A stretch of 64,000 bases of DNA, from the sequence record NC_042093.1; one strand, written 5' to 3'. Positions 323-39,071 of the stretch are shown here, one piece after another. The notes beneath the pieces are model-generated. The model saw nothing but the letters and a program-made list of their open reading frames with translations. It was not told the DNA's origin and searched no databases. The DNA is from Klebsiella phage Sugarland. Numbering within the stretch: the first letter of the stretch is position 1; each line of letters opens with the position of its first letter. Position numbers and translations under genes: made by a program.

Positions 323-1177
323 TCACGCGGTGAACGGATATGCAATAGGGTCATGAGACTTATACCCCACGATTTTAAAGTCGTCCTTAGAAACCCAGGT
401 GAGTACGTCCTCTAGGGTTTTTATCTCCGGGTTGATCTCTAGACGGGGGGCCGGGAAAGGTTTGCGGTCGAATTGACCATGTTCCATGAGAACCTTGTAC
501 TGATTCTCGTAGATGTGCATATTTACTATACGTTGGTTTGCTCTGATTGCCCGGTTCCCTGTGATCTGGGCCATAAGCGCAAGAAACGTGTAGCATTGGA
601 CCATGTTAAAGGCTTGTCCCAATAGGAAGTCATTGGATCTCTGGAAGGAGTCGAGATACAGATTTCCATTGAGTAGCGAGAACTGGTGGGTATGCATGCA
701 CGGTCGTAAGCATCCTTGATCAAATTCGCCAGGGTTCCAGAAGGTGAGAATCTCTCCGCGGTCATCAATGCCTCGTCGTAAATTCTCATAGATCTTATAG
801 AGTTGGTCAAAGTGGGAGCCATCCGGTCGAAGCCACGTTCTGCCCTGTACTCCATAGACTCTACCCATATCGTCGGTTCCCTTTCTGTTAGGGTTGACCA
901 GCCACGCCTCGTTTTCGTTGGCGTTAGCGTTCCACGTATTGCAGCCGATAGCACGGAATTGCTCTGCGGAATCATATCCTCGCAGATATCCGATAAGCTC
1001 CATGATGGCCTGAAGGGCATACGCTTTACGAGTTGTAATAAGTGGGAATTTCTTTCCGAGTACATCATATTCAAAGTTTGACCCTATTACGGTTAAACAA
1101 CGAACCCCCGTTCGAGGGTTCTCCAGCCAGACACCTTCTTCGAGAATGCGTTTGCCTTCATTAATATAGTGAATCAC
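323..1177 (-). CDS. thyA: thymidylate synthase (ThyA family)
   Basis: 284 aa. WNP...RPCMHTHQF active-site Cys region and overall ThyA-like layout. Sits in the thy-frd-nrd cluster as in T4/T5. Confidence 0.85.
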
Positions 1178-1737
1178 AGATAGACTCCCTCCATAACAAA
1201 ACGATAGCGCTCATTTTCCCCAGAAGCTACATGAGTTACTACAGCATCCGGAGGAGTGGACGTAAGTATCGGGTGCTCCAGATACATAATGTGGTCTAGG
1301 CTTGGTACTGTACCAGCCTTAGGATAAATAGTGGAGCGATAGATCGCATCCAGACAGCCCATAGTTGCTAGAGTTTCTAGCAGAGCTTTCCCTCCTATGC
1401 AGACTACCTCAACTTCATTACAGAAGTCCCGAATTTTGGGACCCAAGTGGGTGATAAACCGCACATTACGAGGCGGGTTTTTTATCAGAATTGGGGATAC
1501 CGAACCTACTACGTACACCATGGATTTCTTCTCCAGTGCCTTTTTCAGTCGGGGAGGGGCCGTTGTGTAGGTATTATGGCCCAGGATAACAACCTGGTAG
1601 GTATCCAGGATTTTGTAGAACTGTTCTAGCTCCTCGGGAATGGAGCCCCAGGGAAGTTCCCCGTAGGCATCCAGTGTGGCCGGATTAAAAATCCCGAAGG
1701 CTCCATCAACTCGCATTGCGTATAAAGCTGTAATCAT
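1174..1737 (-). CDS. frd: dihydrofolate reductase-like protein
   Basis: 187 aa. CIGGKALLE glycine motif and DHFR-like length. Translationally coupled between thyA and nrdB. Confidence 0.55.
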
Positions 1738-2894
1738 TACAGAAACTCTCCAAATTCGTCAGACAGATCGTCCGGGTTAGCCTGAGATGTTGCACCAACA
1801 CGATAGTTGGTAATCTGTGCTTCTTGTGGTGCTACCTGCTGGTTCTTGGTGTTCAGCCAACCTTTCATCCAGCCAATCGGGTCTTCCATAATTACCGGGA
1901 GATCTTCCGGCCACGGAATGTTGATTGCCATAAACGCCAGGCGTGCGTTGTAATACAGGTACTCTACCAGCAAATCGGCGTTCAGACCCGGAATATCTTC
2001 GCCTTCCGGGAAAATATAATGCGCCCAGTTAATTTCTGTCTCCAAAATGCTGCGCAGGATCTTGGGAGCGTTAGCCTGAGCTGCTGCTACAACATGGGGA
2101 GGAAATTCTCCGCTCTGGATAATACGCAGAACTTCCATCGCCATAACGGTGTGGAGCGCTTCGTCTTTCGCGATAAGCTGTAAGTTCTTAGCGATACCCG
2201 TCAGAATATCGTTCTCCGCCAGAGCAAAGGTACATGCAAATGATGCGTAGAACATAATGGCTTCTAGGGCGTATACAGCGTAGTAGAACTCCAGGATTTT
2301 CTGCTGTAATTGTTCGGTCAGCTCTTGGAATTCATGCGGCGACAGGCACATGACGTCATCTTCCTGGGCCAGCTCAATTGCCTCTCGTTCTTTAAGCCAA
2401 ATCTCTGCTAGTTCGGCCAGCTCATCGATAACAGAAACCGGCAGTGCTAGACGTGCAAATGCTTCGTCGTTAGCCTGTACAGTCGCAATGAAGTCGCCCG
2501 GATTAGGGAGAACGTTGCGAATAATGTTGGAATACGCACGACTGTGAATATTCTCAAAGTAGCTCCACTGAATAAGCATACCTTCCAGCTCAGGACGAGA
2601 TACCAGTTTCAAAATAGCATCTTCTGGAGCACGGGTGATAATGGAGTCGGCTTGAGTTTGCCAGGCTAAGTTCAGCAGGGTCTTGTTTTTAATATGCTGA
2701 GGCAGATTAGGCCATTGTTTTTTGTCGTTTTCCAGGGAGATTTCTGTTTCTACCCAGAACTGAGAACGCTGTAGCAGCGCTAAGTCTTCTAAGCGCTGGT
2801 ATTTTACGTTGACATAGTCGGCAATCCCAAGCTCTTGACCCAGGAATAGTTTAGATTCCTTGTGATCCCATTCGCGATTAAATACTGTAGACAT
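1737..2894 (-). CDS. nrdB: ribonucleotide reductase class Ia small (beta) subunit
   Basis: 385 aa with di-iron ferritin-like EXXH motifs. Adjacent to nrdA. Confidence 0.85.
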   Translation of the reverse strand: MSTVFNREWDHKESKLFLGQELGIADYVNVKYQRLEDLALLQRSQFWVETEISLENDKKQWPNLPQHIKNKTLLNLAWQTQADSIITRAPEDAILKLVSRPELEGMLIQWSYFENIHSRAYSNIIRNVLPNPGDFIATVQANDEAFARLALPVSVIDELAELAEIWLKEREAIELAQEDDVMCLSPHEFQELTEQLQQKILEFYYAVYALEAIMFYASFACTFALAENDILTGIAKNLQLIAKDEALHTVMAMEVLRIIQSGEFPPHVVAAAQANAPKILRSILETEINWAHYIFPEGEDIPGLNADLLVEYLYYNARLAFMAINIPWPEDLPVIMEDPIGWMKGWLNTKNQQVAPQEAQITNYRVGATSQANPDDLSDEFGEFL

Positions 2895-3421
2895 TAGATT
2901 TCTCCGTTATTTGCAAATTCTCCATGAAGTTCGGCTAACTTGGAGTCTCTCCACTTTATAGCCTCTTCAAGAGTTTTCAGTGTTTTTGTGTATGATTTGC
3001 CCTGCTTCCCGATTCGTACTTGGAATGAATTGCCTTTAGGTCTTATATTTTTCATACCAAATTCGTTGTCACTACGCACCCTAGAGTTCATAGAATTTTG
3101 GGAGCTGGTGGCTTTTCTCAAGTTATCCCACTTACAGTTACGTGGGTCATTATCTTTGTGGTCTATCTTGCCTTCTGGTAACTCTCCAGTCATGTACAGA
3201 AAAGCTAGGCGATGAGCTAAATACTGAATCCCGTCCACTTTAATGCGTAAGTACCCTAGATGGTCGTAAGTTCCGGCCTCAGCACCCCAATACATCTTTG
3301 GCAGCATCTTTCTAGGTTTCCACGTGAAAACTCCAGTAGAGGGATCGTAGGAGATTAGCTCTTTAAGTTCTTCTCTCGATTTCATGTGAATATTATAACA
3401 AAAAATCCAACCTACTTGCAA
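2894..3421 (-). CDS. free-standing HNH (HNH_3) homing endonuclease with AP2 DNA-binding domain
   Basis: 175 aa. AHRLAFLYM...DHKDNDPRNCKWDNLRKATSSQN HNH core plus an AP2-like tail. Inserted exactly between nrdB and nrdA. Paralog of 16868-17392. Confidence 0.7.
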   Translation of the reverse strand: MQVGWIFCYNIHMKSREELKELISYDPSTGVFTWKPRKMLPKMYWGAEAGTYDHLGYLRIKVDGIQYLAHRLAFLYMTGELPEGKIDHKDNDPRNCKWDNLRKATSSQNSMNSRVRSDNEFGMKNIRPKGNSFQVRIGKQGKSYTKTLKTLEEAIKWRDSKLAELHGEFANNGEI

Positions 3422-3454
3422 ATAAAATTTTGCTTTCGGTTGGATCGAGCTTAA

Positions 3455-5839
3455 TTATAGAGTACAACCGCCACTGGAACAACCCTGCTCTGCTGCAGAG
3501 CCTCCGGTATCTACGTCAAAGTTTGCGTAGTAGAGGTTCTTAATCCCATATTTAGTGGAGTTAAGGAGATCTTTGATAATCTCAGTACCCGGAATAATAC
3601 CTCCAGGATATTTGTTAAAGTCGTAGTACAGGTTGGCGCTAATAGCCTGATCCGTGAACTTCTGCAGAACCGCTAACCACTTGATGTGCTCAGTACGGTC
3701 AATATCGAACGCATACTTATAGGACTGCATGGTGTCCCAATCGTCTAGACCCGGAGCTACAGTAATTACTTTGTTAACGCCCGAAGTCTTGATAGTTACT
3801 GCACTGCGAGGAGGCTCTACTGCGTTGGTAACACCAATCAGAACAGAGCTAGACTCTCCCGGCATACTTGCAGTCAGGACAGAGTTGCGCATACCATGAG
3901 TTTTGATCTCTTCACGGAGGCTCTCCCAGTCCATTTCTAGACCTACGGAAACCAGGTCATCCACAGTCTTCTTGTAAGTATCGATTAATAGCGTGCCATC
4001 AGAAGTGTGAGTACGGTGGAACCATTCACATGGGCCAACTTCTTTTGCCAGACGTACAGACGCTTTGTGAAGGAAGAACGATGCCTTCTCTGCCTCACGG
4101 TGGATCCAGTTACGGGCTTCTTCGCCTTCGAATGCCAGGCCTTCAGCGGCCATCGCTCCTGCGGCGTTCATCAGTCCAATACCTACGTTACGGCGGCGTA
4201 ATGCCGTGTACTTCATAGCTGGGAACGGATAGTGCTGAATCTCGATAATGGTATCAACGAACTTCAATAGGATGTAGGAGATCTTCTCCCATTCTTCCAG
4301 GGTTTTGATACGACCTAAGGCGAATCCACCTAAGTTGCACAGAGATACTTCCCCATACTCTGAAACATCCATTTTATCCAGTTCTTCGTCTGTACGGTAC
4401 AGATCTACTACATGAGGGATCGGGAACGTTGGCTGTACAATCTCAACACAAAGGTTGGACATACGCACCGGATCTTTGTAGCGGCTGTTGCGGTTCACTT
4501 CACCAGCATCCATAGTGTACAGGCGACCAGTTTCCATACGTACAGTTTTCCAGAACTCAATCAGTTCTGCGGCAGGGATCACCGGGGCTACAGGTAGAAC
4601 TTCACCCTTGAAACCACGTTTGGTAACACCCGCTAGACGTTTTTCGGCTGCGATGTATAGACGTTCAAATTCTGCTACGTCGCCAGAGTCAAACGCTGCG
4701 TATACTTCGGGAGCGTACAGGAAACTCATCAGTGTGATGTTCTCTTTACGCAGGAAGCGTTTCAGGAGAATACTGTTAAACTTCAGGTTGTAGTCCATCT
4801 TATCGATTTTCTTTTCATCAGGGGAACGGTTGCTCTTAGCTTCCATTACCTGAATGATTTCCGGATCGAAGAACGCAGTGTAAACAGTTGCAGAACCACC
4901 ACGAGACTGCTGAGTGTTAGCTTTTACGGAGCGGTCGATGTGTCGATAATATGGCAGTTTTCCAGAGTGTGGGAACGCGCCTTTTCGCACCGGATCAGCA
5001 ATTGATCTACTCTCAAGATGATAGCCGATCCCTGCTCGGGCAGCGACCATTTTGAAGACGACGTGCTCTGCTGCGTCAATGGAGTCCAGGGTGTCAGTAC
5101 CATCAACAAGACAGCAAGAAGCGAAGCCCCTGTCAGCGCTCCGAAGGCCCACGAGCGGCGGAGTTGGGACGTTGATTTTCTGTAGCGACAGCGCGTTATA
5201 AAGGTCGATTGCATCGAGCATACTCCAGTGAGGTTGAGAAAGCATTGCCATTGCCATACCCATGTAGGCAAACTGCGGAGTTTCATAGATCTCTTCCGTA
5301 TAAATATTACGTCTAGAGTATTTATCCATGAACTGCTTCAGACCAGCATTAGTGAACAGTTCGTCACGGCTATGGTCGATAACTTCGTTTAGAGCTTCAA
5401 ACTGGTCGTCAGAGATCCAGCCGCTCATATCTTCCCACGCTCCCAGCTCTACCATGTGGTCGTGGAAGAAACGCAGAGATGGTGGGGTGTAAGAATCAAA
5501 CAGGTTCTTACGGAGCTGGGCTAAACGCAGCTCTAGGGCGAATCGGTCGTAACGATGATCACGCTCGATCATTGATTCGGCAGACTTAATCAGCATTGTT
5601 TGCAGATCGTCTGAGTGTACATCACCTTTCGGCAGGTTCTTAACTGCGGCTACCGCTACCGGAGACCACGGCACATCGCTTCGGATTCCGATGTATTTTG
5701 CCCAGTCATTCAGCTTCTGGGCCATGAACGGTTCTTTTGTACCGTCACGCTTGATAACGTATTCAATACGTTGGGTCATTGGTAACTCCTTTTGGAAGTT
5801 GTCAGGATTTAAAAGATATTCTACTTTGTTTTCGGCCAT
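3455..5839 (-). CDS. nrdA: ribonucleotide reductase class Ia large (alpha) subunit
   Basis: 794 aa. N-terminal ATP-cone-like region, catalytic core, C-terminal CSSGGC redox pair. Confidence 0.9.
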   Translation of the reverse strand: MAENKVEYLLNPDNFQKELPMTQRIEYVIKRDGTKEPFMAQKLNDWAKYIGIRSDVPWSPVAVAAVKNLPKGDVHSDDLQTMLIKSAESMIERDHRYDRFALELRLAQLRKNLFDSYTPPSLRFFHDHMVELGAWEDMSGWISDDQFEALNEVIDHSRDELFTNAGLKQFMDKYSRRNIYTEEIYETPQFAYMGMAMAMLSQPHWSMLDAIDLYNALSLQKINVPTPPLVGLRSADRGFASCCLVDGTDTLDSIDAAEHVVFKMVAARAGIGYHLESRSIADPVRKGAFPHSGKLPYYRHIDRSVKANTQQSRGGSATVYTAFFDPEIIQVMEAKSNRSPDEKKIDKMDYNLKFNSILLKRFLRKENITLMSFLYAPEVYAAFDSGDVAEFERLYIAAEKRLAGVTKRGFKGEVLPVAPVIPAAELIEFWKTVRMETGRLYTMDAGEVNRNSRYKDPVRMSNLCVEIVQPTFPIPHVVDLYRTDEELDKMDVSEYGEVSLCNLGGFALGRIKTLEEWEKISYILLKFVDTIIEIQHYPFPAMKYTALRRRNVGIGLMNAAGAMAAEGLAFEGEEARNWIHREAEKASFFLHKASVRLAKEVGPCEWFHRTHTSDGTLLIDTYKKTVDDLVSVGLEMDWESLREEIKTHGMRNSVLTASMPGESSSVLIGVTNAVEPPRSAVTIKTSGVNKVITVAPGLDDWDTMQSYKYAFDIDRTEHIKWLAVLQKFTDQAISANLYYDFNKYPGGIIPGTEIIKDLLNSTKYGIKNLYYANFDVDTGGSAAEQGCSSGGCTL

Positions 5840-19742: not shown

Positions 19743-20501
19743 ATGGCTAAATTAACCTGGAACGAAGAAATCACTGCATCCCTGACCGCTAAAGCTAACG
19801 CCCTGAACGCGACCGTTATCTCTCAGGAAGCTGTTGCTAACATCGCTGCTGAACTGGCTGCTGAAACTGGTAAAGAAGTTACCGCTCGTTCGGTTGGTTC
19901 TAAACTGCGTAAAGAAGGCTTCGAAGTGCAGAAAGCATCCGACGTAACCAAATCTCCATGGACTCCGGGTCAGGAAGATGAGCTGGTTGCATTCCTGAAC
20001 GATCATCCAGGTCAGTATACCTACGCTGAAATCGCTGCTGCTGTAGTTGGTGGTGCTTATACCGCTAAACAAGTACAGGGTAAAATCCTGAGCCTGGAAC
20101 TGACTGCCGCTGTTAAGCCTACTGAAAAGGCCGCCGCTGTACGTAGCTTTAGCCCGGATCAGGAAGCTGCTTTCATTAACGCCGTTGCCAGTGGCGCGTC
20201 CGTTGAAGCAATCGCTGCTCAGTTTGAACGTACCGTTAAGCAGATCCGTGGTAAAGCTCTGAGCCTGCTGCGTGAAGGCCGTATCGAAGCTATGCCGGTT
20301 CAGGAAGTCTCTAATGCTAAGGCACGTGAAGACGTTCTGGAAGGTCTGAATATCGCTGATATGACCGTTGCTGAGATCGCAGAAGCAACTGGTAAATCCG
20401 AGCGTGGTGTTAAGTCTATGCTGAGCCGCCGTGGTATCTCTGCTAAGGATCACGATGGTGTTGCTAAGCGCGCTAAACTTGACGCTAAATCCGCCAAGTA
20501 A
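19743..20501 (+). CDS. abundant repeat-domain DNA-binding protein candidate (possibly T5 D5-like)
   Basis: 252 aa, four ~60-aa HTH-like repeats, very strong codon optimisation, own terminator. Size and position match T5 D5, but the D5 assignment is an inference. Confidence 0.45.
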   Translation: MAKLTWNEEITASLTAKANALNATVISQEAVANIAAELAAETGKEVTARSVGSKLRKEGFEVQKASDVTKSPWTPGQEDELVAFLNDHPGQYTYAEIAAAVVGGAYTAKQVQGKILSLELTAAVKPTEKAAAVRSFSPDQEAAFINAVASGASVEAIAAQFERTVKQIRGKALSLLREGRIEAMPVQEVSNAKAREDVLEGLNIADMTVAEIAEATGKSERGVKSMLSRRGISAKDHDGVAKRAKLDAKSAK

Positions 20502-20515
20502 TTGATTTGACCTGA

Positions 20516-20548
20516 GGGGAGAGGAATTTTGTTCCTCTCCCCTTTTTC
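20516..20548 (+). terminator. rho-independent terminator
   Basis: GGGGAGAGGAA-TTTTG-TTCCTCTCCCC followed by TTTTT. Confidence 0.8.
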
Positions 20549-20585
20549 GTTTAAGTAGACGCTAACGCGGCGTAGAGAGTATCTT

Positions 20586-22064
20586 ATGTATAACGTCCAA
20601 GCAGTAGTTTTGAAAATGCTCCTAGCCTCCGATCAAAAGCAGGTGGCCCTAGAGACATTCTCTAGACTGCGCAAAGATCACTTCAATGACGCATTTACCG
20701 CGATCTACCAAGCTGTCCAGAATTATTACAAAAAGCATAACGGAATGCCTTCGTTAGATGCTCTGATGCTAGAGTCTAACAGAAACGCAAGGTTGTCTCA
20801 AGCACTAACTGTTTTAGCAAACACTCAGATTCCAGACGTTGACATATCGCATGCGATTCATGTCCTAGAGTCGGAATACACACAGGATCTATTCCTGAAT
20901 CTGCTAGAAACTGATGTGTTGCAGGATATTACCATACTGGATCAGGGAGAATTACTTGATCGAGTAGCGGCTCTGCACATGAAGCTAGAGGAACGAGTAA
21001 CAACGACTGGTAAGGTCTTCAACGCCGATACTATGCGTGTTTTCAAGAGAAAAGAAGACTCCATGTTAAATCTTATCTCTCTCGGCATCTCAAACGAATT
21101 TGATGCTCAACTTGGCGGAATTGCCAGAAAAGAAACACTGCTACTCGGTGGATGGCGTGGTACAGGTAAATCAATCATCTGTTCTAACATTCAAGTAGCC
21201 CAGTATTACAACGGGGATATCGCCCCATATTTCTCCATCGAAATGCCAGAGAATGAGGTCTTTAGACGTAACCTAGCCATTATGGCCGGTGTTTCAGCTA
21301 AGGCTATGCGCAATGACTCCTTACAAGGTATTGAACTCAACAAACTTGCGAAGACTCGTGCAAAAATGTTCGAAGGCGGTCTGGAAGTATATAACGATTT
21401 TGTATCACGTTATACGCTCAACGAGATGAGTGACTTCCATGATATGGAGACTATGCTAATGCAGGAAAGACCCCTGCACACTCCGATGATCATCGTATAT
21501 GATCCGGAGCTTAGTACAGCAACTATTGATGTTGAACTGACTAAGTTAACCTCCAAGTATGGGGATAAGGTAACAATCGCCCTGCTAGACTATATCAACC
21601 AGGTACGTTTGCCGGATACAAAGACATTAGATATGTATGATTGGAAGCAGCAGATGGTTGTCTCCTCTACGTTCAAGTCTACGTGCCAAAAGCATAACGT
21701 TGCTGGTGTAGCTCCTTACCAGATTGACCAACAGGGTAACGCCCGTATGGCAAGAGGTATTCTCGATTCCTGTGATATGGCTGCAAATCTAAATGCTGCT
21801 AAACAGAACGAGGGGCATGACGGTGCAATCAAGTTTGACTTCGTAAAAACTCGTAACTCCGAGGGTATGACATTCATGCCGAAGATCAACTGGAACTCAT
21901 TACGTATGGATCAGACTTCTGATCTTAAACTAGAGGACATTCGTCAGATGGAAGCAGAGTTTGTTATCCCACTTGAAAGCGACAAACCGAAAGACAAACC
22001 AAAAAGGAAAAAGGCTTCGGATGAGGATACTAATCCCACCGGAGAATCCTCAAGAGACTTATGA
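20586..22064 (+). CDS. DnaB-like replicative DNA helicase
   Basis: 492 aa. Walker A GWRGTGKS and RecA-like C-terminal domain. Confidence 0.75.
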   Translation: MYNVQAVVLKMLLASDQKQVALETFSRLRKDHFNDAFTAIYQAVQNYYKKHNGMPSLDALMLESNRNARLSQALTVLANTQIPDVDISHAIHVLESEYTQDLFLNLLETDVLQDITILDQGELLDRVAALHMKLEERVTTTGKVFNADTMRVFKRKEDSMLNLISLGISNEFDAQLGGIARKETLLLGGWRGTGKSIICSNIQVAQYYNGDIAPYFSIEMPENEVFRRNLAIMAGVSAKAMRNDSLQGIELNKLAKTRAKMFEGGLEVYNDFVSRYTLNEMSDFHDMETMLMQERPLHTPMIIVYDPELSTATIDVELTKLTSKYGDKVTIALLDYINQVRLPDTKTLDMYDWKQQMVVSSTFKSTCQKHNVAGVAPYQIDQQGNARMARGILDSCDMAANLNAAKQNEGHDGAIKFDFVKTRNSEGMTFMPKINWNSLRMDQTSDLKLEDIRQMEAEFVIPLESDKPKDKPKRKKASDEDTNPTGESSRDL

Positions 22065-33852: not shown

Positions 33853-36800
33853 TTACATACCTAACTTCTCTTCAATTTCCGAAAGACGCGCTTCGAATCC
33901 CTTCGCGATAAACATGTTAAGTTCATCGAGTCGGAACGAATAACGATCGCCAGCCGGGATGGTTTTGTAGATTGGGTTTTCTGTTCCGTCTTCATTAAGC
34001 GAACCGTATTCAGAAACCACCGTTTGCTCATCCCATTCGTCATGGCAGATGAAGCCATATTTAAACGGTTCAAGCCCAAAACTTTCCATGATCTCCATCG
34101 CACGCTGTACGGTCAAACCACAATGCTCGCGAATGTCGTTCATATCAGCTTGCTCCTTCCACGTCCAGAACCCGATCTCCTTCGCAATGGCTTTGGCCGC
34201 TTCGGTTTCAGGGTTGCTCATCATGCGAACATCATTTTTCAGCCGAGCGTCTGAGGTGTTGATTGACCCATTTGTAGCGTAGATGTTTTTGACTCGACCA
34301 CTACCCCATCCAATATCATAACTGCCATCACCCATCGGGACGAAGTTCCCGTTGTGGTCAACGCTCCAGCGAGCGGTTCGTGCAGTAGATCCTACAGTGC
34401 ATGTTTCGAACAAGATTCGCGTTGGCGTACTGCTTGTACCCCACCCTCCAGCAGCCTGAATAGTAACCGCGCCACGCATTGAATCGAATTTCTCCCCGTC
34501 GTGGCCAGACGCCCCAAAGAAGAAACTAGACCATGACTGTGTCGCACCGATATATTTATCAGAGTTACCAAGGCTACCATCGCACCACATTGCACGAACC
34601 GCAGGAGATGATGTAGCAGAACCGCGAGGTGCAATCATGTTAATTTCCGGCGCGCCATCCGATGATACAAGTTTCAACCCTCTACCATCCTGATTGGTTG
34701 GAGCATTGAATTTCGGCACTACTGCGTTTAACGTTTCAAAGCTACGCACCAGCCCAAGATCTGAGTGCATAGCGCCGTCTGGAACCAGCCAAAGATCGCC
34801 ATTATCCGACAGCCTGAACGCCGGAACCCTATCGCTAATCGTCTTACCTTTAGGGGTGACAAGTAAGCGAATCCAGCCTCCGTGATTGGTTCCAGATGTA
34901 TCGCCAGCGCCCAAGAAATGCAACGCCGCGTTACTATGCTCCGTGTAGTCAGATCCTAACCACGGGCGAGAACCATAACCACCTAAAAGCTGATTGTTCT
35001 TAGTTACGCTATTGGACGCGCCTCGTGCATAGTTATGGAATACAGCAGATCCGCCAGCAGTATTCTCAATACCGAAAGAGCATTCCGTTGCGTTGTCGCC
35101 GATAAAGTTAACGCCAACCCCGGTTGTTGCGGTCGTCTCCTTCAATGGCAAACTCTGAGATGCGGTAACGTCAATCCCTTTGCTATTGACACCACCATTA
35201 ACAACCATGTTACCACTTCCGTCAATCGTCACTTGACCACTTCCGGATCCATCGCCATTTGGACGCAAATAAATTCGCTGTCCAGCTTTTGCGCTAATGA
35301 TTGGCTCCCCTCCGCTATTGCAACGAATTGCCGCGCCTTGACCAAATGCTATTTTGGTATCTCCACCACTTGCAGCCGTGCAAGAGACCTCGATCCCATT
35401 ATCTGATGCCGCTGCGCCAGCTGGTCGTAATTGAATCTGTCTATCAGTGCCGCCGGAGGCAGACAGAATCAAGCGGCCCTCCCCACCTTCGCGAACCATT
35501 GCACCGCGACCCATTACTATCCCTTTGTCACTTCCTGGTACTTTTGATGCTGCGCCACCACCAACGCCAAGGTTTCCATTTAACGAGCTAGCACCACTAA
35601 TAGCAAGCTCACTACCAGAAAGGCTACCTGATGCACTTAACGTCTTAACACTAACGTCTTGATTCGTGCCACTTACAACCGACTCTCTCCATGCCGACCA
35701 AGTTCCACCATTGCTATAACGTGTGAATTCACGATTTAAATCAGAGCTAAAAATGCGCTGACGGTTAGTGAAATCAGTGTCGCTCACTTTACGAAGTGAC
35801 TCGACGTAAAGAATGAAGTTTCCGCCTACACCGCTTGGCTTGTTAGTAATATTTGCACCACCACCGTATCCTGGACACCGATAAATGCGTACCGTCCCAG
35901 GAGTACTCAGGTTAATCGTTAGGCTGTTAAGATCAAGTGTCTGCCCATCTATGTTCTCAGCCTCCCAAGCCCCGAAAAAGCCATTAGCGAACGTCATTGG
36001 TCCAGCAACAGAGAAACCAGCATCCATCATTTTACGCGTTACAACCTTGCTGTTTTGCGCTTGGTTTGAATTTTCTCCATAAGCGAGATCGCCATCAACA
36101 TCAATGCCCAAAAGCTTTGCGCTCATGTTGTTAAGTTTAAACCCAATTGACAGATCAGAATCAGCGTCGCGTGTTAACATGATTGGCGTGTGTTGCTTGC
36201 CACTAACTCTTAGACTTGTTGCCCCAGTGTCTGTGTCGTCATTAGAGAAATCAGCGGTACGAGAAGAGATCTTGTAACTGATCTTTGCGTCTCGTGCTTC
36301 GATTCGTCCATCATGGCGCACAATAAAATCTCCACCAGTTGTGCCGCCAGTGGTCTTTGCGCGAATGCGTACCTCACCCAGCGATTCATTGTTTGGCGGC
36401 GACCAAAGCACTCCGCGTTCTCCGCCGTCACCATTTTGAAACCATACATGAGCATTACCACTTGCCGACTTGAGCCGGATAGCTGGAGTTGCTTTTGCGA
36501 TATCAAGGTCACCCGTCATGGTATCGCCAACCTTCTTAACTTGCGCGTCGTTAGTTACGTTACCCAGGCCAACATCCGATTTTGATGGCTTGTTAACTGT
36601 GCCATAAAGGGTATTTACCTTTACGTTACCGGCATTGAGGCTTGCGTCATTGGCGGCGAGTATCACAACCTTACCGCTGTTATAGTCAATGTTAATCGCT
36701 GAAATAGTGTCTCCACAGCGGGAAGACATACCAGAGCCGTGAGACATAATGCTTGAGCTAGCTCCAGACTTCTGGCTTGCTCGCCAAAAATGCCCACCTT

Positions 36801-38649
36801 TCTCTCTCATGCGTTGCAATAAGTCTGCATCGCTGGTAATGTTATCATATGAAATACCACTACCTCCAAGACCAAAAACACCTACCTGCATCACGTTATC
36901 ATTTGACGTACCAACATCTTTATAAGCTGCCGAACCTAGCCCCAAAGCCTCTTTTGACGGTTTGTTAAGCTCATCATACACGCGGATAGCCTTGCTTTCC
37001 ACCCAGTCGGCTGGCATGTCGTTTTGGCTAACATATCCGCTAGGAATATAGAGGTCAACCCAACCTGCTTTTGCCAGAATAGCCACCTTCACGTTATTAA
37101 TGAAAGCCCGCTGGAAGGCCCAAATCTCAAAGAAACCATCACCCTTAACAATCCCGTACCGCAATTGGTTATCTTCCGCAAGGCTCGGATCACCAAGGCG
37201 GCGAATCTGCATAAACTGGCGAACGTTTGAAGCGTTAATAACGGTTGTTCCAAGGCTACGCGCTGACGCATCAAGAAAGTCTATTGAGCCTTGACGCGCT
37301 CCATAGTTTCCGCCGTTTGTGATCATTAGTGTAACGTGGGACTCAGACGAACCCGGATCAGACAGTTTTGCGATTTTTATATACTTTTCCCCTGCCGCTG
37401 TACCAACGGGCCAGTTATATTGGGTCAGCGGACTGGCAATAAGAGAGGCTTTATCGGCATACTCCTTAGCATTCGTCTCGCTAGTCTTTGCATTCGTCTC
37501 GCTAGTCTTTGCATTCGTTTCGCTAGTCTTTGCATTCGTTTCGGATGTTGCAGCAGCGTTTTTGCTGTTATTAGCGTTCGTCTCGCTAGTCTTTGCATTC
37601 GTCTCGCTAGTCTTTGCATTCGTTTCGCTAGTCTTTGCTGCCGCCGCACTCGCTGCTGCCGCTACCTTACTACTGTCTGCGCTAGTAGCACTTGTTGCCG
37701 CCGCGTTCTTGCTGGCTGCTGCTTCGTTTTCTGACGTCTTGGCTGCTGTCTCACTTGCCGCTGCCGCGTTCTTACTTGCTAGCGCTGCCGTTTCGCTTGC
37801 TTTCGCTGCATCTTGACTGGTTTTTGCTGCGTTTTTGCTTGCTGCTGCTGCATTCTCACTAGCTTTTGCGTTAGTCTCCGAAGTCTTAGCAGCTACTTCT
37901 GAAGCCTTAGAGTTTGTCTCTGAAGTCTTAGCAGCTACTTCTGATACTTCGGCATTAGTCTCCGAAGTCTTAGCAGCTGTCTCACTAGCTTTTGCATTAG
38001 TCTCTGAAGTATTAGATTTAGTCTCCGAAGTCTTAGCAGCTACTTCTGAAGCCTTAGAGTTTGTCTCTGAAGTCTTGGCAGCCACTTCTGATGCTTTTGC
38101 ATTAGTCTCCGAAGTCTTAGCGGCTGTCTCACTAGCTTTTGCATTAGTCTCTGAAGTCTTAGATTTAGTCTCCGAAGTCTTAGCAGCCACTTCTGATGCT
38201 TTTGCATTAGTCTCCGAAGTCTTAGCAGCCACTTCTGATGCTTTTGCATTAGTCTCCGAAGTCTTAGCAGCTGTCTCACTAGCTTTTGCATTAGTCTCTG
38301 AAGTCTTAGCAGCTACTTCTGATGCTTTTGCATTAGTCTCCGAAGTTTTAGCAGCTTTAGCACTATTAGCAGAAGCAGTAGCAGAAGAGGCAGCTTGAGT
38401 TGCAGATTGTTGAGAAGCTGCCGCAGAGATAGCGGCCCCATTCTCAGAAGCTTTGGCATTAATCTCTGACTGCTTAGCTGCGGCAGCAGAAGCTGCGGAT
38501 GCTTCTACTGCTGAAGTTAACTCTCCTGCTGTAATAGAACTGATAGAATTAGCCAGAACTACTGTATACTTAGGGTACTTACTAGCAGTAGTTATGGTAT
38601 CATCTATGTTTAGAAGCTGCTGTACAATAATTTTAGTTTTGATTGCCAT
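33853..38649 (-). CDS. L-shaped tail fibre protein (pb1-like) with C-terminal intramolecular chaperone domain
   Basis: 1598 aa. Long Ala/Ser/Thr-rich 7-residue repeat shaft, a beta-rich middle, and a C-terminal NTSDARLKNDV autocleavage-type motif followed by a chaperone-like domain. Confidence 0.8.
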   Translation of the reverse strand: MAIKTKIIVQQLLNIDDTITTASKYPKYTVVLANSISSITAGELTSAVEASAASAAAAKQSEINAKASENGAAISAAASQQSATQAASSATASANSAKAAKTSETNAKASEVAAKTSETNAKASETAAKTSETNAKASEVAAKTSETNAKASEVAAKTSETKSKTSETNAKASETAAKTSETNAKASEVAAKTSETNSKASEVAAKTSETKSNTSETNAKASETAAKTSETNAEVSEVAAKTSETNSKASEVAAKTSETNAKASENAAAASKNAAKTSQDAAKASETAALASKNAAAASETAAKTSENEAAASKNAAATSATSADSSKVAAAASAAAAKTSETNAKTSETNAKTSETNANNSKNAAATSETNAKTSETNAKTSETNAKTSETNAKEYADKASLIASPLTQYNWPVGTAAGEKYIKIAKLSDPGSSESHVTLMITNGGNYGARQGSIDFLDASARSLGTTVINASNVRQFMQIRRLGDPSLAEDNQLRYGIVKGDGFFEIWAFQRAFINNVKVAILAKAGWVDLYIPSGYVSQNDMPADWVESKAIRVYDELNKPSKEALGLGSAAYKDVGTSNDNVMQVGVFGLGGSGISYDNITSDADLLQRMREKGGHFWRASQKSGASSSIMSHGSGMSSRCGDTISAINIDYNSGKVVILAANDASLNAGNVKVNTLYGTVNKPSKSDVGLGNVTNDAQVKKVGDTMTGDLDIAKATPAIRLKSASGNAHVWFQNGDGGERGVLWSPPNNESLGEVRIRAKTTGGTTGGDFIVRHDGRIEARDAKISYKISSRTADFSNDDTDTGATSLRVSGKQHTPIMLTRDADSDLSIGFKLNNMSAKLLGIDVDGDLAYGENSNQAQNSKVVTRKMMDAGFSVAGPMTFANGFFGAWEAENIDGQTLDLNSLTINLSTPGTVRIYRCPGYGGGANITNKPSGVGGNFILYVESLRKVSDTDFTNRQRIFSSDLNREFTRYSNGGTWSAWRESVVSGTNQDVSVKTLSASGSLSGSELAISGASSLNGNLGVGGGAASKVPGSDKGIVMGRGAMVREGGEGRLILSASGGTDRQIQLRPAGAAASDNGIEVSCTAASGGDTKIAFGQGAAIRCNSGGEPIISAKAGQRIYLRPNGDGSGSGQVTIDGSGNMVVNGGVNSKGIDVTASQSLPLKETTATTGVGVNFIGDNATECSFGIENTAGGSAVFHNYARGASNSVTKNNQLLGGYGSRPWLGSDYTEHSNAALHFLGAGDTSGTNHGGWIRLLVTPKGKTISDRVPAFRLSDNGDLWLVPDGAMHSDLGLVRSFETLNAVVPKFNAPTNQDGRGLKLVSSDGAPEINMIAPRGSATSSPAVRAMWCDGSLGNSDKYIGATQSWSSFFFGASGHDGEKFDSMRGAVTIQAAGGWGTSSTPTRILFETCTVGSTARTARWSVDHNGNFVPMGDGSYDIGWGSGRVKNIYATNGSINTSDARLKNDVRMMSNPETEAAKAIAKEIGFWTWKEQADMNDIREHCGLTVQRAMEIMESFGLEPFKYGFICHDEWDEQTVVSEYGSLNEDGTENPIYKTIPAGDRYSFRLDELNMFIAKGFEARLSEIEEKLGM
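37440..38400. repeat. array of near-identical 21-bp (7-codon) tandem repeats, with 42/84-bp higher-order units, inside the tail fibre gene
   Basis: Many copies of units like GCATTCGTCTCGCTAGTCTTT and GCATTAGTCTCCGAAGTCTTAGCAGC. Encodes the (AKTSETN/AKASEVA)n region. Confidence 0.85.
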
Positions 38650-39071
38650 TATTGAGTTACTCCATCACTGATATAGACTTTACCTTCCATGATACGGAAG
38701 GAACCGACCTCTGAGCCAGTACCCTCACGAGTCATTAGAATGTCATAGTAACCAGCAAAACGTTGTCTTGGGTTATATTTATCACGTTCTTTGGATGATT
38801 TATTACCGATATTGGTAACATCGGAAATTGAAAGACTGATAGTAGCCGCCCCATGAGTAGCGTCGATTACACTAGTTTTAAAGGTTGCTAAAGTCTCAGC
38901 ATCCTCATCAAGATTTGCCTTGATAGTTCCACGGAGTGAATAGCCTGTTAAATTCACGGGGGACTCAGTTGGAGGATAAACACTATCATCAACATCCATA
39001 AACTGCATGGTAAGACCATACGGTACTTTCTCATCAATAACAATATCAATTACTCTATTTTCTGTACTCAT
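38649..39071 (-). CDS. tail collar protein candidate (T5 p132-like)
   Basis: 140 aa. Sits between the fibre and the pb4-like gene, as in T5. Confidence 0.45.

Follow-up and report, generated by a model that had tools for sequence, protein, structure and literature searches.

An apparently recent, length-polymorphic expansion of a heptad tract in the L-shaped tail fiber gene of Klebsiella phage Sugarland

The L-shaped tail fiber gene (ltf) of Klebsiella phage Sugarland carries a long tract of heptad repeats, which we examined here within a 64,000-nucleotide stretch of the sequence record NC_042093.1, referred to below as the window. We consider it quite probable that the tract encodes the coiled-coil arm of a T5-type fiber, that this arm was lengthened by recent tandem duplication, and that its copy number differs among sister phages. 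Phage, gene, and domain are all known; this version of the domain is specific to its lineage, has expanded recently, and is apparently polymorphic in length. The window gene is a 100% match to the coding sequence (CDS) annotated as "L-shaped tail fiber protein" in Klebsiella phage Spivey (MK630230.3), a T5-like Sugarlandvirus of the Demerecviridae, and values given for Spivey ltf are therefore those of the window gene.

Tandem DNA arrays in the heptad tract

The tract spans residues 51 to 400 of the fiber protein (positions 37450 to 38499), slightly more than an earlier, sequence-only reading of the window (the first-pass annotation) had outlined, and it comprises 50 heptads in unbroken register. 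Position 1 of the heptad is occupied by a small residue throughout (43 Ala and 7 Ser), and position 4 is Ser in 49 of the 50 heptads. Six residues (A, S, T, K, E, and N) account for 94% of the composition, and Pro, Trp, Phe, Cys, His, Met, and Arg are absent. Among the large hydrophobics, Leu occurs once, Ile twice, and Val nine times, in each case outside positions 1 and 4. The three peptide units named in the first-pass annotation (AKTSETN, AKASEVA, and AKASETA) appear exactly in the in-frame translation. A degenerate DNA pattern for AKTSETN matches the window 18 times, always within the tract, compared to 0.01 times in shuffled sequence.

Recent DNA-level repeats do not extend over the whole 1 kb but are limited to two arrays, A and B (Table 1). 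The remaining N-terminal and middle heptads, 17 of the 50, are degenerate at the DNA level with 40 to 55% identity. Tandem Repeats Finder (TRF), proposed earlier as a check, returned overlapping arrays spanning 37465 to 38356. The first-pass annotation had described near-perfect 21-bp repeats with higher-order periods of 42 and 84 bp. The 21-nt (7-codon) base period is indeed present, on the minus strand and inside ltf, but "near-perfect" is overstated: the alternation of AKTSETN with AKASEVA or AKASETA leaves neighboring units in array A with only 54% identity. Identity in array A reaches 75% at a lag of two units (42 bp, a period that TRF recovers with 76% matches) and 85% at a lag of seven (147 bp). 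The actual periods are 42 bp and, above all, 147 bp; an 84-bp period was not found in the tract. TRF places the 147-bp period at 37871 to 38309, with 3.0 copies, 94% matches, and a score of 773, and pairwise comparison of the three copies shows 136, 132, and 139 of 147 bases to be identical (90 to 95%). Array B is recovered with a period of 21 bp (8.3 copies, 79%) and has a mean unit identity of 78%. The two arrays use different serine codons, AGC in array B versus TCG or TCA in array A. For AKTSETN units, identity is 91% inside array A and 96% inside array B but 72% between the arrays, indicating that the two arrays expanded separately.

The identity among units exceeds what the peptide demands. 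We generated 1,000 synonymous encodings of the same peptide, using codon frequencies taken from the remainder of ltf, and none of the resampled sequences reached the observed values. Lag-7 identity in array A is 0.854, compared to 0.674 ± 0.019 after resampling (maximum, 0.731; z = 9.3), and the all-pairs unit identity of both arrays lies above every one of the 1,000 resamplings. Two natural controls agree. The T5 fiber protein pb1 carries 23 heptads in the same place, with approximately 46% DNA identity and no periodicity at any lag, and its five AKTSETN units have five different encodings. An adhesin of Aggregatibacter has 37 distinct units among 39 for this same peptide repeat. The excess of DNA identity over peptide need therefore supports a recent expansion of 21-bp units, as the first-pass annotation had proposed. 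Spivey has 202 residues more than T5, and 189 of these are 27 additional heptads.

Several lines of evidence bear on what the tract encodes. It opens with the heptads seen in T5 (AKQSEIN ... SQQSATQ ... SANSAKA AKTSETN), and on either side it has homologs of the sequences that begin and close the T5 coiled-coil domain, which has been delimited experimentally together with the other domains of pb1 (anchoring, 1 to 40; coiled coil, 41 to 218; fiber, 219 to 1263; then chaperone) and which appears straight in electron microscopy (EM) images, with a variable kink where it meets the fiber domain (PMC12750041). Ltf residues 1 to 223 match the LtfA protein of phage DT57C (PDB 8hqz chain d; E = 2.8e-30), whose helix, starting at T40, enters a three-helix coiled coil that runs radially from the LtfC ring in the cryo-EM structure (PMC10713586). 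AlphaFold2 (AF2), run on the single-sequence monomer, predicts helices at residues 41 to 209 and 217 to 403, mostly with a predicted local distance difference test score (pLDDT) of 70 to 85 and with a predicted template modeling score (pTM) of 0.27; the modeled break at 210 to 216 is the fold-back of a lone chain, an artifactual hairpin. The T5-homologous ends, the predicted helix, and the DT57C match together argue that the L-shaped tail fiber has its coiled-coil "upper arm" in this tract, the counterpart of the T5 pb1 coiled-coil domain. The heptad shaft within an L-shaped fiber gene, as read in the first pass, also agrees with the Spivey annotation, with the 71% identity to pb1, and with the alignment to the pb1 coiled coil (PMC12750041). 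By analogy with the first turns of the DT57C arm (PMC10713586) and with the T5 images (PMC12750041), we infer that the chains form a trimer along the whole tract. A Pfam scan of the whole protein yielded no model for the tract, even at E = 10, and a PF23435 label precomputed for Ltf in the database was not reproduced.

Table 1. Features of ltf and its surroundings in the window (aa, amino acids of Ltf)
Feature	Position	Strand	Basis or measure
Array A (aa 100-267), made up of 24 21-bp units, copy number variable	37849-38352	-	TRF periods 42 and 147, lag identities
Higher-order repeat in array A, three 147-bp (7-heptad) copies	37870-38310	-	TRF and pairwise comparison
Array B, 8 units, aa 338-393, six AKTSETN with Ser = AGC	37471-37638	-	TRF
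N-terminal heptads, 7 units, aa 51-99, degenerate DNA, conserved with T5	38353-38499	-	47% mean unit identity
Middle heptads, 10 units, aa 268-337, degenerate DNA, number constant among relatives	37639-37848	-	Heptad typing
Coiled-coil domain, aa 41-403, predicted continuous alpha-helix, proximal arm	37441-38529	-	AF2 and alignment to T5 pb1 41-218
Last heptad and linker AKEYADK ASLIASP LTQYNWP, likely kink site between arm and fiber domain	37408-37470	-	Conserved with T5
Anchoring domain, aa 1-40, predicted to insert under the collar	38530-38649	-	Homology to DT57C LtfA and T5 pb1 limits (PMC12750041)
Fiber domain and receptor-binding tip, homologous to T5 pb1 219-1263	34261-37407	-	BLASTP
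C-terminal intramolecular chaperone, Peptidase_S74	33856-34260	-	Pfam PF13884, aa 1466-1525, E = 1.2e-8
ltf, L-shaped tail fiber protein, 1598 aa, T5 pb1 ortholog	33853-38649	-	4797-bp open reading frame (ORF)
LtfC/p132 collar protein gene, fiber attachment point	38649-39071	-	Pfam PF23926 LtfC, E = 9.6e-16
Antisense ORF, 165 aa	37319-37816	+	ORF list
Antisense ORF, 187 aa, in frame with the preceding ORF	37835-38398	+	ORF list

Copy number among relatives and alternative explanations

We typed array A per 21-bp unit in eight GenBank Sugarlandviruses and at the peptide level in three further database proteins and one metagenome contig (L041). Copy numbers of 10, 12, 17, 20, 21, 22, and 24 were found in 13 related sequences, which differ by whole heptads only and are 98 to 99% identical over the 719 bp upstream. 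The count is 24 units for Spivey, phi1_146058, GZ8, and P0007, 22 in P0009, 21 in P0015 (Veronica), 20 in Riker and DevonBitter, 17 in Torridgeon, 12 in AmPh_EK80, and 10 in Roth37, three near-identical sisters of Roth37, and L041. The arrays begin and end with conserved units and are variable in between, and all insertions and deletions are multiples of 21 bp. Spivey and Torridgeon are separated by seven units, equivalent to one 147-bp copy. In array B, the difference is one or two units (7 to 9 in relatives), and the number of degenerate flanking heptads is constant. Given the homogeneity of the units at the DNA level, this is the pattern expected of slippage or unequal recombination. The length polymorphism suggested in the first pass is thus found between conserved flanks, with copy numbers drawn mostly from short reads, and the relatives do not share a single copy number. 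In contrast, all 12 protein clusters of the T5 clade carry 22+1 heptads, as counted with an anchored tolerant detector (a strict run detector under-counted distant relatives), so that copy number is fixed there and variable in the Sugarlandvirus clade. When IMG/VR was scanned for the collar protein, 27 T5-like loci were found but no Sugarlandvirus above 89% identity.

Spivey and the group of phi1_146058, GZ8, and P0007 have exactly 24 array A units despite a clearly different unit order. This shared length could be due to chance, or it could hint at a ceiling on array length or a preference for this one.

A number of points weigh against our reading of an expanded, length-variable coiled-coil arm. 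On the structural side, the DT57C structure covers only the first residues of the tract homolog, and AF2 modeled one chain from its sequence alone, with a pTM of 0.27 and the hairpin artifact at 210 to 216. The Ala/Ser core is also atypical, lacking the large hydrophobics that canonically fill the a and d positions; the coiled-coil domains of T5 pb1 and lambda Stf are likewise without such a core. Copy numbers, for their part, come mostly from short-read assemblies, and some may be in error. Reads of 2x150 bp underlie the Roth assemblies, array A contains both ends of the Torridgeon record and of the DevonBitter record, contig L041 stops within array B, and the Spivey record has reached version three, in which the ltf protein bears a new accession. 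The unit string of Roth37 (ABARALSDEI) fits either a true deletion between identical units or an assembly collapse.

The Torridgeon (OR896843) and DevonBitter (OR896848) records break at nucleotides 581 and 585 of ltf, which is annotated in them only as two misc_features, and the KlebPhaCol preprint describes both phages as missing a tail fiber gene. When end and start are joined without overlap, the two records give intact in-frame ORFs of 1549 and 1400 amino acids. In our reading, the fiber gene is present in both phages but split by the record ends.

The same assembly features, together with a Roth37 unit order that is a sub-path of the Spivey order, would suit a rival explanation in which the coiled-coil domain is stable and the copy-number differences are mostly short-read artifacts, produced by collapse or mis-joining of the 147-bp repeat. 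We regard this as unlikely. Unit order is not the same in all arrays of 24 units; it runs FCPBALAL... in Spivey and FCACABAM... in phi1_146058 and GZ8, and units T, O, U, V, J, and K of the latter two are absent from Spivey. Such private variants and a different order at equal length cannot be produced by collapse. Moreover, phi1_146058 and GZ8 are separate deposits with the same unit order except for the last unit, the intermediate copy numbers (17, 20, 21, and 22) come from separate records and metagenome proteins, and array B varies as well. The heptads of the Aggregatibacter adhesins fall into 16 length classes in 7-residue steps, despite scrambled codons that are easily assembled.

It is far less probable that the tract is a low-complexity, intrinsically disordered spacer whose 7-residue period is a mere by-product of DNA repeat amplification. 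The simple composition, dominated by six residues, would be compatible with such a spacer, as would the missing Pfam model and the matches to RNA polymerase II C-terminal domain (CTD) heptads that reflect periodicity only. However, the register is unbroken over 50 heptads, including the 17 that are not DNA repeats, and it is common to T5, where the DNA repeat is absent. Positions 1 and 4 invariably carry small residues, and the helix is predicted with a pLDDT of 70 to 85. The homologous region begins as a three-helix bundle by cryo-EM (PMC10713586), and the T5 domain is straight in EM (PMC12750041).

For the plus strand opposite the tract, the first-pass annotation had given spurious long ORFs under the single range 37319 to 38398. 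Long ORFs do exist there, as two rather than one (Table 1), and the stops of their frame between 37304 and 38411 are only those at 37304, 37814, 38396, and 38411. We judge both to be spurious by-products of the repeat composition. Hardly any weight can be given to the alternative that they encode real overlapping antisense proteins that constrain the repeat, which could appeal to their lengths (165 and 187 amino acids) and to a comparable antisense ORF annotated in lambda (orf206b), but the ORFs are without annotation in Spivey, their limits coincide with the repeat, their length follows array A copy number in relatives, their Leu/Ala/Val/Ser-rich products are the translated complement of the repeat, and every residue is dictated by the sense frame, so that no independent conservation signal is possible.

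Comparison with other fibers and stalks

Spivey Ltf and T5 pb1 are encoded by orthologous genes located after the LtfC gene and share the anchoring domain, the fiber domain, and the chaperone. Within the arm, they have in common the first seven heptads, the Ala/Ser heptad, and the end motif AKEY.D. AS.L.SP.TQY.WP. They differ in the number of heptads (50 in Spivey and 23 in T5), and the extra 27 lie in two DNA-level arrays that have no equivalent in T5.

The likeness to lambdoid side tail fibers noted in the first pass is borne out by lambda Stf (orf-401), which contains exact AKTSETN heptads inside the domain at residues 102 to 393, its proximal coiled coil (PMC12617516). The two proteins share the heptad type, its use in the proximal rod of a trimeric side fiber, and a long antisense ORF, which is annotated in lambda. 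That ORF, orf206b, lies at 20147 to 20767 of NC_001416, antisense in the coiled-coil region of stf, and by analogy it is probably the same composition artifact as the plus-strand ORFs of the window. In contrast, the N-terminal attachment domain and the distal parts of Stf are unrelated to Spivey Ltf, and the Stf tract has no DNA-level tandem array as far as its sequence indicates. A BLASTP comparison of Spivey Ltf residues 1 to 420 with lambda orf-401 aligned the heptad region alone (E = 2e-4, composition adjusted). Membership of Ltf in the lambda Stf family was rejected, as only the heptads align and Ltf has neither the StfN attachment domain nor the gp37-like distal domain. More broadly, the tract matches 24 PHROG tail fiber families, and tblastn finds it in 311 phage records, which include T5-like phages, ~50-kb Klebsiella siphophages, and coliphages with side tail fibers. 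These matches indicate that the heptad tract is, at the sequence level, a widely shared rod module.

The N-terminal 470 residues of Ltf score highest against 109 clusters of chromosomal Aggregatibacter YadA-like trimeric autotransporter adhesins (P0121 to P0240), in a search where candidates were chosen by shared words and the query's own database copy was unlisted. The adhesin stalk, part of an obligate trimer, resembles the tract in its alternating pair of AKASETA with A[KQ]T[SA]ETN (AQTAETN or AKTSETN) and in its length polymorphism by whole heptads, and it differs in belonging to a bacterial outer-membrane protein rather than a phage. Adhesin lengths range from 640 to 745 amino acids, with 103 of the 109 equal to 3 modulo 7, and the stalk tract covers 173 to 278 amino acids in exact steps of seven. 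The codons of one such gene (L039:4001-6217) are scrambled, and no DNA similarity to the Spivey units rises above 81%. A recent DNA transfer between adhesin and phage was accordingly rejected. The Aggregatibacter stalks provide independent evidence of the use of this peptide in a trimeric stalk and of tolerance to length variation in heptad steps.

The arrays also resemble the variable-number tandem repeats (VNTRs) of phage and bacterial surface proteins, with near-identical tandem units in a host-contact protein and a copy number that differs among close relatives. As in VNTRs, the DNA identity goes beyond coding need and copy number differs between conserved flanks, the latter subject to the assembly caveat. 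The unit in the window differs from VNTRs in being both a multiple of three and one structural heptad. Because the unit is an in-frame heptad, changes alter length only and do not switch the gene off, unlike those at frameshifting contingency loci.

In a sequence search of the PDB, the N terminus of DT57C LtfA was the only true relative, and matches to the RNA polymerase II CTD were rejected as artifacts of heptad periodicity. Three Klebsiella phage depolymerases of ~907 to 928 amino acids (7lzj_A, 7vyv_A, and 7vz3_A) contain short stretches of like heptads at residues ~129 to 194. They share only ~45 residues with Ltf, and their structures could give an experimental view of an Ala/Ser core. 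A search of the literature for the peptide AKTSETN, or for heptad or tandem-repeat length variation in tail fibers, found nothing specific.

Fiber architecture and proposed mechanism of length change

Ltf shares 71% amino acid identity with T5 pb1 over 1360 aligned residues (BLASTP), with the tip above this overall figure, and phrog_24369 covers the protein end to end; by sequence, the window Ltf is a full-length ortholog of pb1. ltf lies directly downstream of the LtfC gene, annotated in Spivey as "collar protein for L-shaped tail fiber attachment," and shares a single base, 38649, with that gene. The linker that follows the heptads has its T5 counterpart in AKEYLDM ASELVSP VTQYDWP, which closes the pb1 coiled-coil domain. 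At the C terminus, the motif NTSDARLKNDV at residue 1464 is a cleavage-site motif identical in T5 around Ser1264, and together with PF13884 it predicts a self-cleaving chaperone of a type described previously (PMC4690869).

The Spivey record is in its third version, and its ltf protein (WLG16177.1) comes from a later accession series than its neighbors. The numbers QBX06898 to QBX06900 are skipped in the record, which suggests that ltf was earlier split into several CDSs.

T5 pb1 binds polymannose O-antigens, and the O3 and O5 antigens of Klebsiella are polymannose. Klebsiella O3 and O5 are thus candidate receptors for the Spivey fiber tip, in the manner of T5 pb1. The distal part of the fiber is not uniform among relatives, as GZ8, AmPh_EK80, and Riker match the window ltf only to approximately nucleotide 3456 of the gene and differ beyond it. 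The central fiber (window positions ~35190 to 37850, gene nucleotides 796 to 3457) is ~77 to 79% identical to the tail fiber of ~50-kb Klebsiella siphophages, represented by vB_Kpn_K50PH164C1 and ~100 metagenome proteins of ~1309 amino acids. At the sequence level, this sharing points to a possible exchange of modules between phage families. T5-like collar or ltf sequences also occur in PQ773600.1, a 41-kb record labeled as a Corynebacterium phage (91.5% nucleotide identity), and under the labels Campylobacter phage C13 (MG065692.1) and Enterococcus faecalis (P0125). The E. faecalis entry is a partial protein identical in type to T5 pb1. All three labels likely reflect contamination or a wrong host.

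We propose that three Ltf chains would be anchored by residues 1 to 40 beneath the LtfC collar and that residues ~41 to 403 would form a parallel three-helix coiled coil with a core of Ala (a) and Ser (d). At the linker, the chains would kink into the rigid fiber domain and the receptor-binding tip, and the C-terminal chaperone would be removed after folding. The arm would project sideways from the tail collar, its length set by the number of heptads at ~1 nm each. With standard coiled-coil geometry (~0.15 nm per residue), the arm would measure ~54 nm in Spivey (50 heptads), ~39 nm in Roth37, and ~26 nm in T5 (23 heptads), so that the recent expansion would have made the Spivey arm about twice as long as that of T5.

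The extra length in Sugarlandvirus would stem from recent tandem duplication of 21-, 42-, and 147-bp units in two arrays. Replication slippage or unequal recombination between near-identical DNA units would then add or remove units. As every unit is 21 bp, each such event would preserve the reading frame and the coiled-coil register, and the fiber would remain functional while its length changes. This mutational mechanism, like any effect on adsorption, is inferred. It is conceivable, though we think it improbable, that the heptad arrays act as an evolvable ruler, in which 21-bp slippage matches the reach of the fiber to how deep the Klebsiella capsule or O-antigen layer is. Selection rather than drift would then govern arm length, and the peptide solution would be shared with bacterial trimeric adhesins, either independently or through an old exchange.

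These findings leave the known working of T5-type fibers unchanged. They do have a practical consequence, as the repeat breaks or distorts short-read assemblies. In comparisons of receptor-binding proteins in Sugarlandvirus, record ends should therefore be joined and copy numbers confirmed by long-read sequencing. Above all, the DNA repeat unit coincides with the structural unit of the protein, such that each slippage event would yield a correctly phased arm, longer or shorter than before. This offers a simple and testable route to variation in fiber length among candidate therapy phages of Klebsiella.

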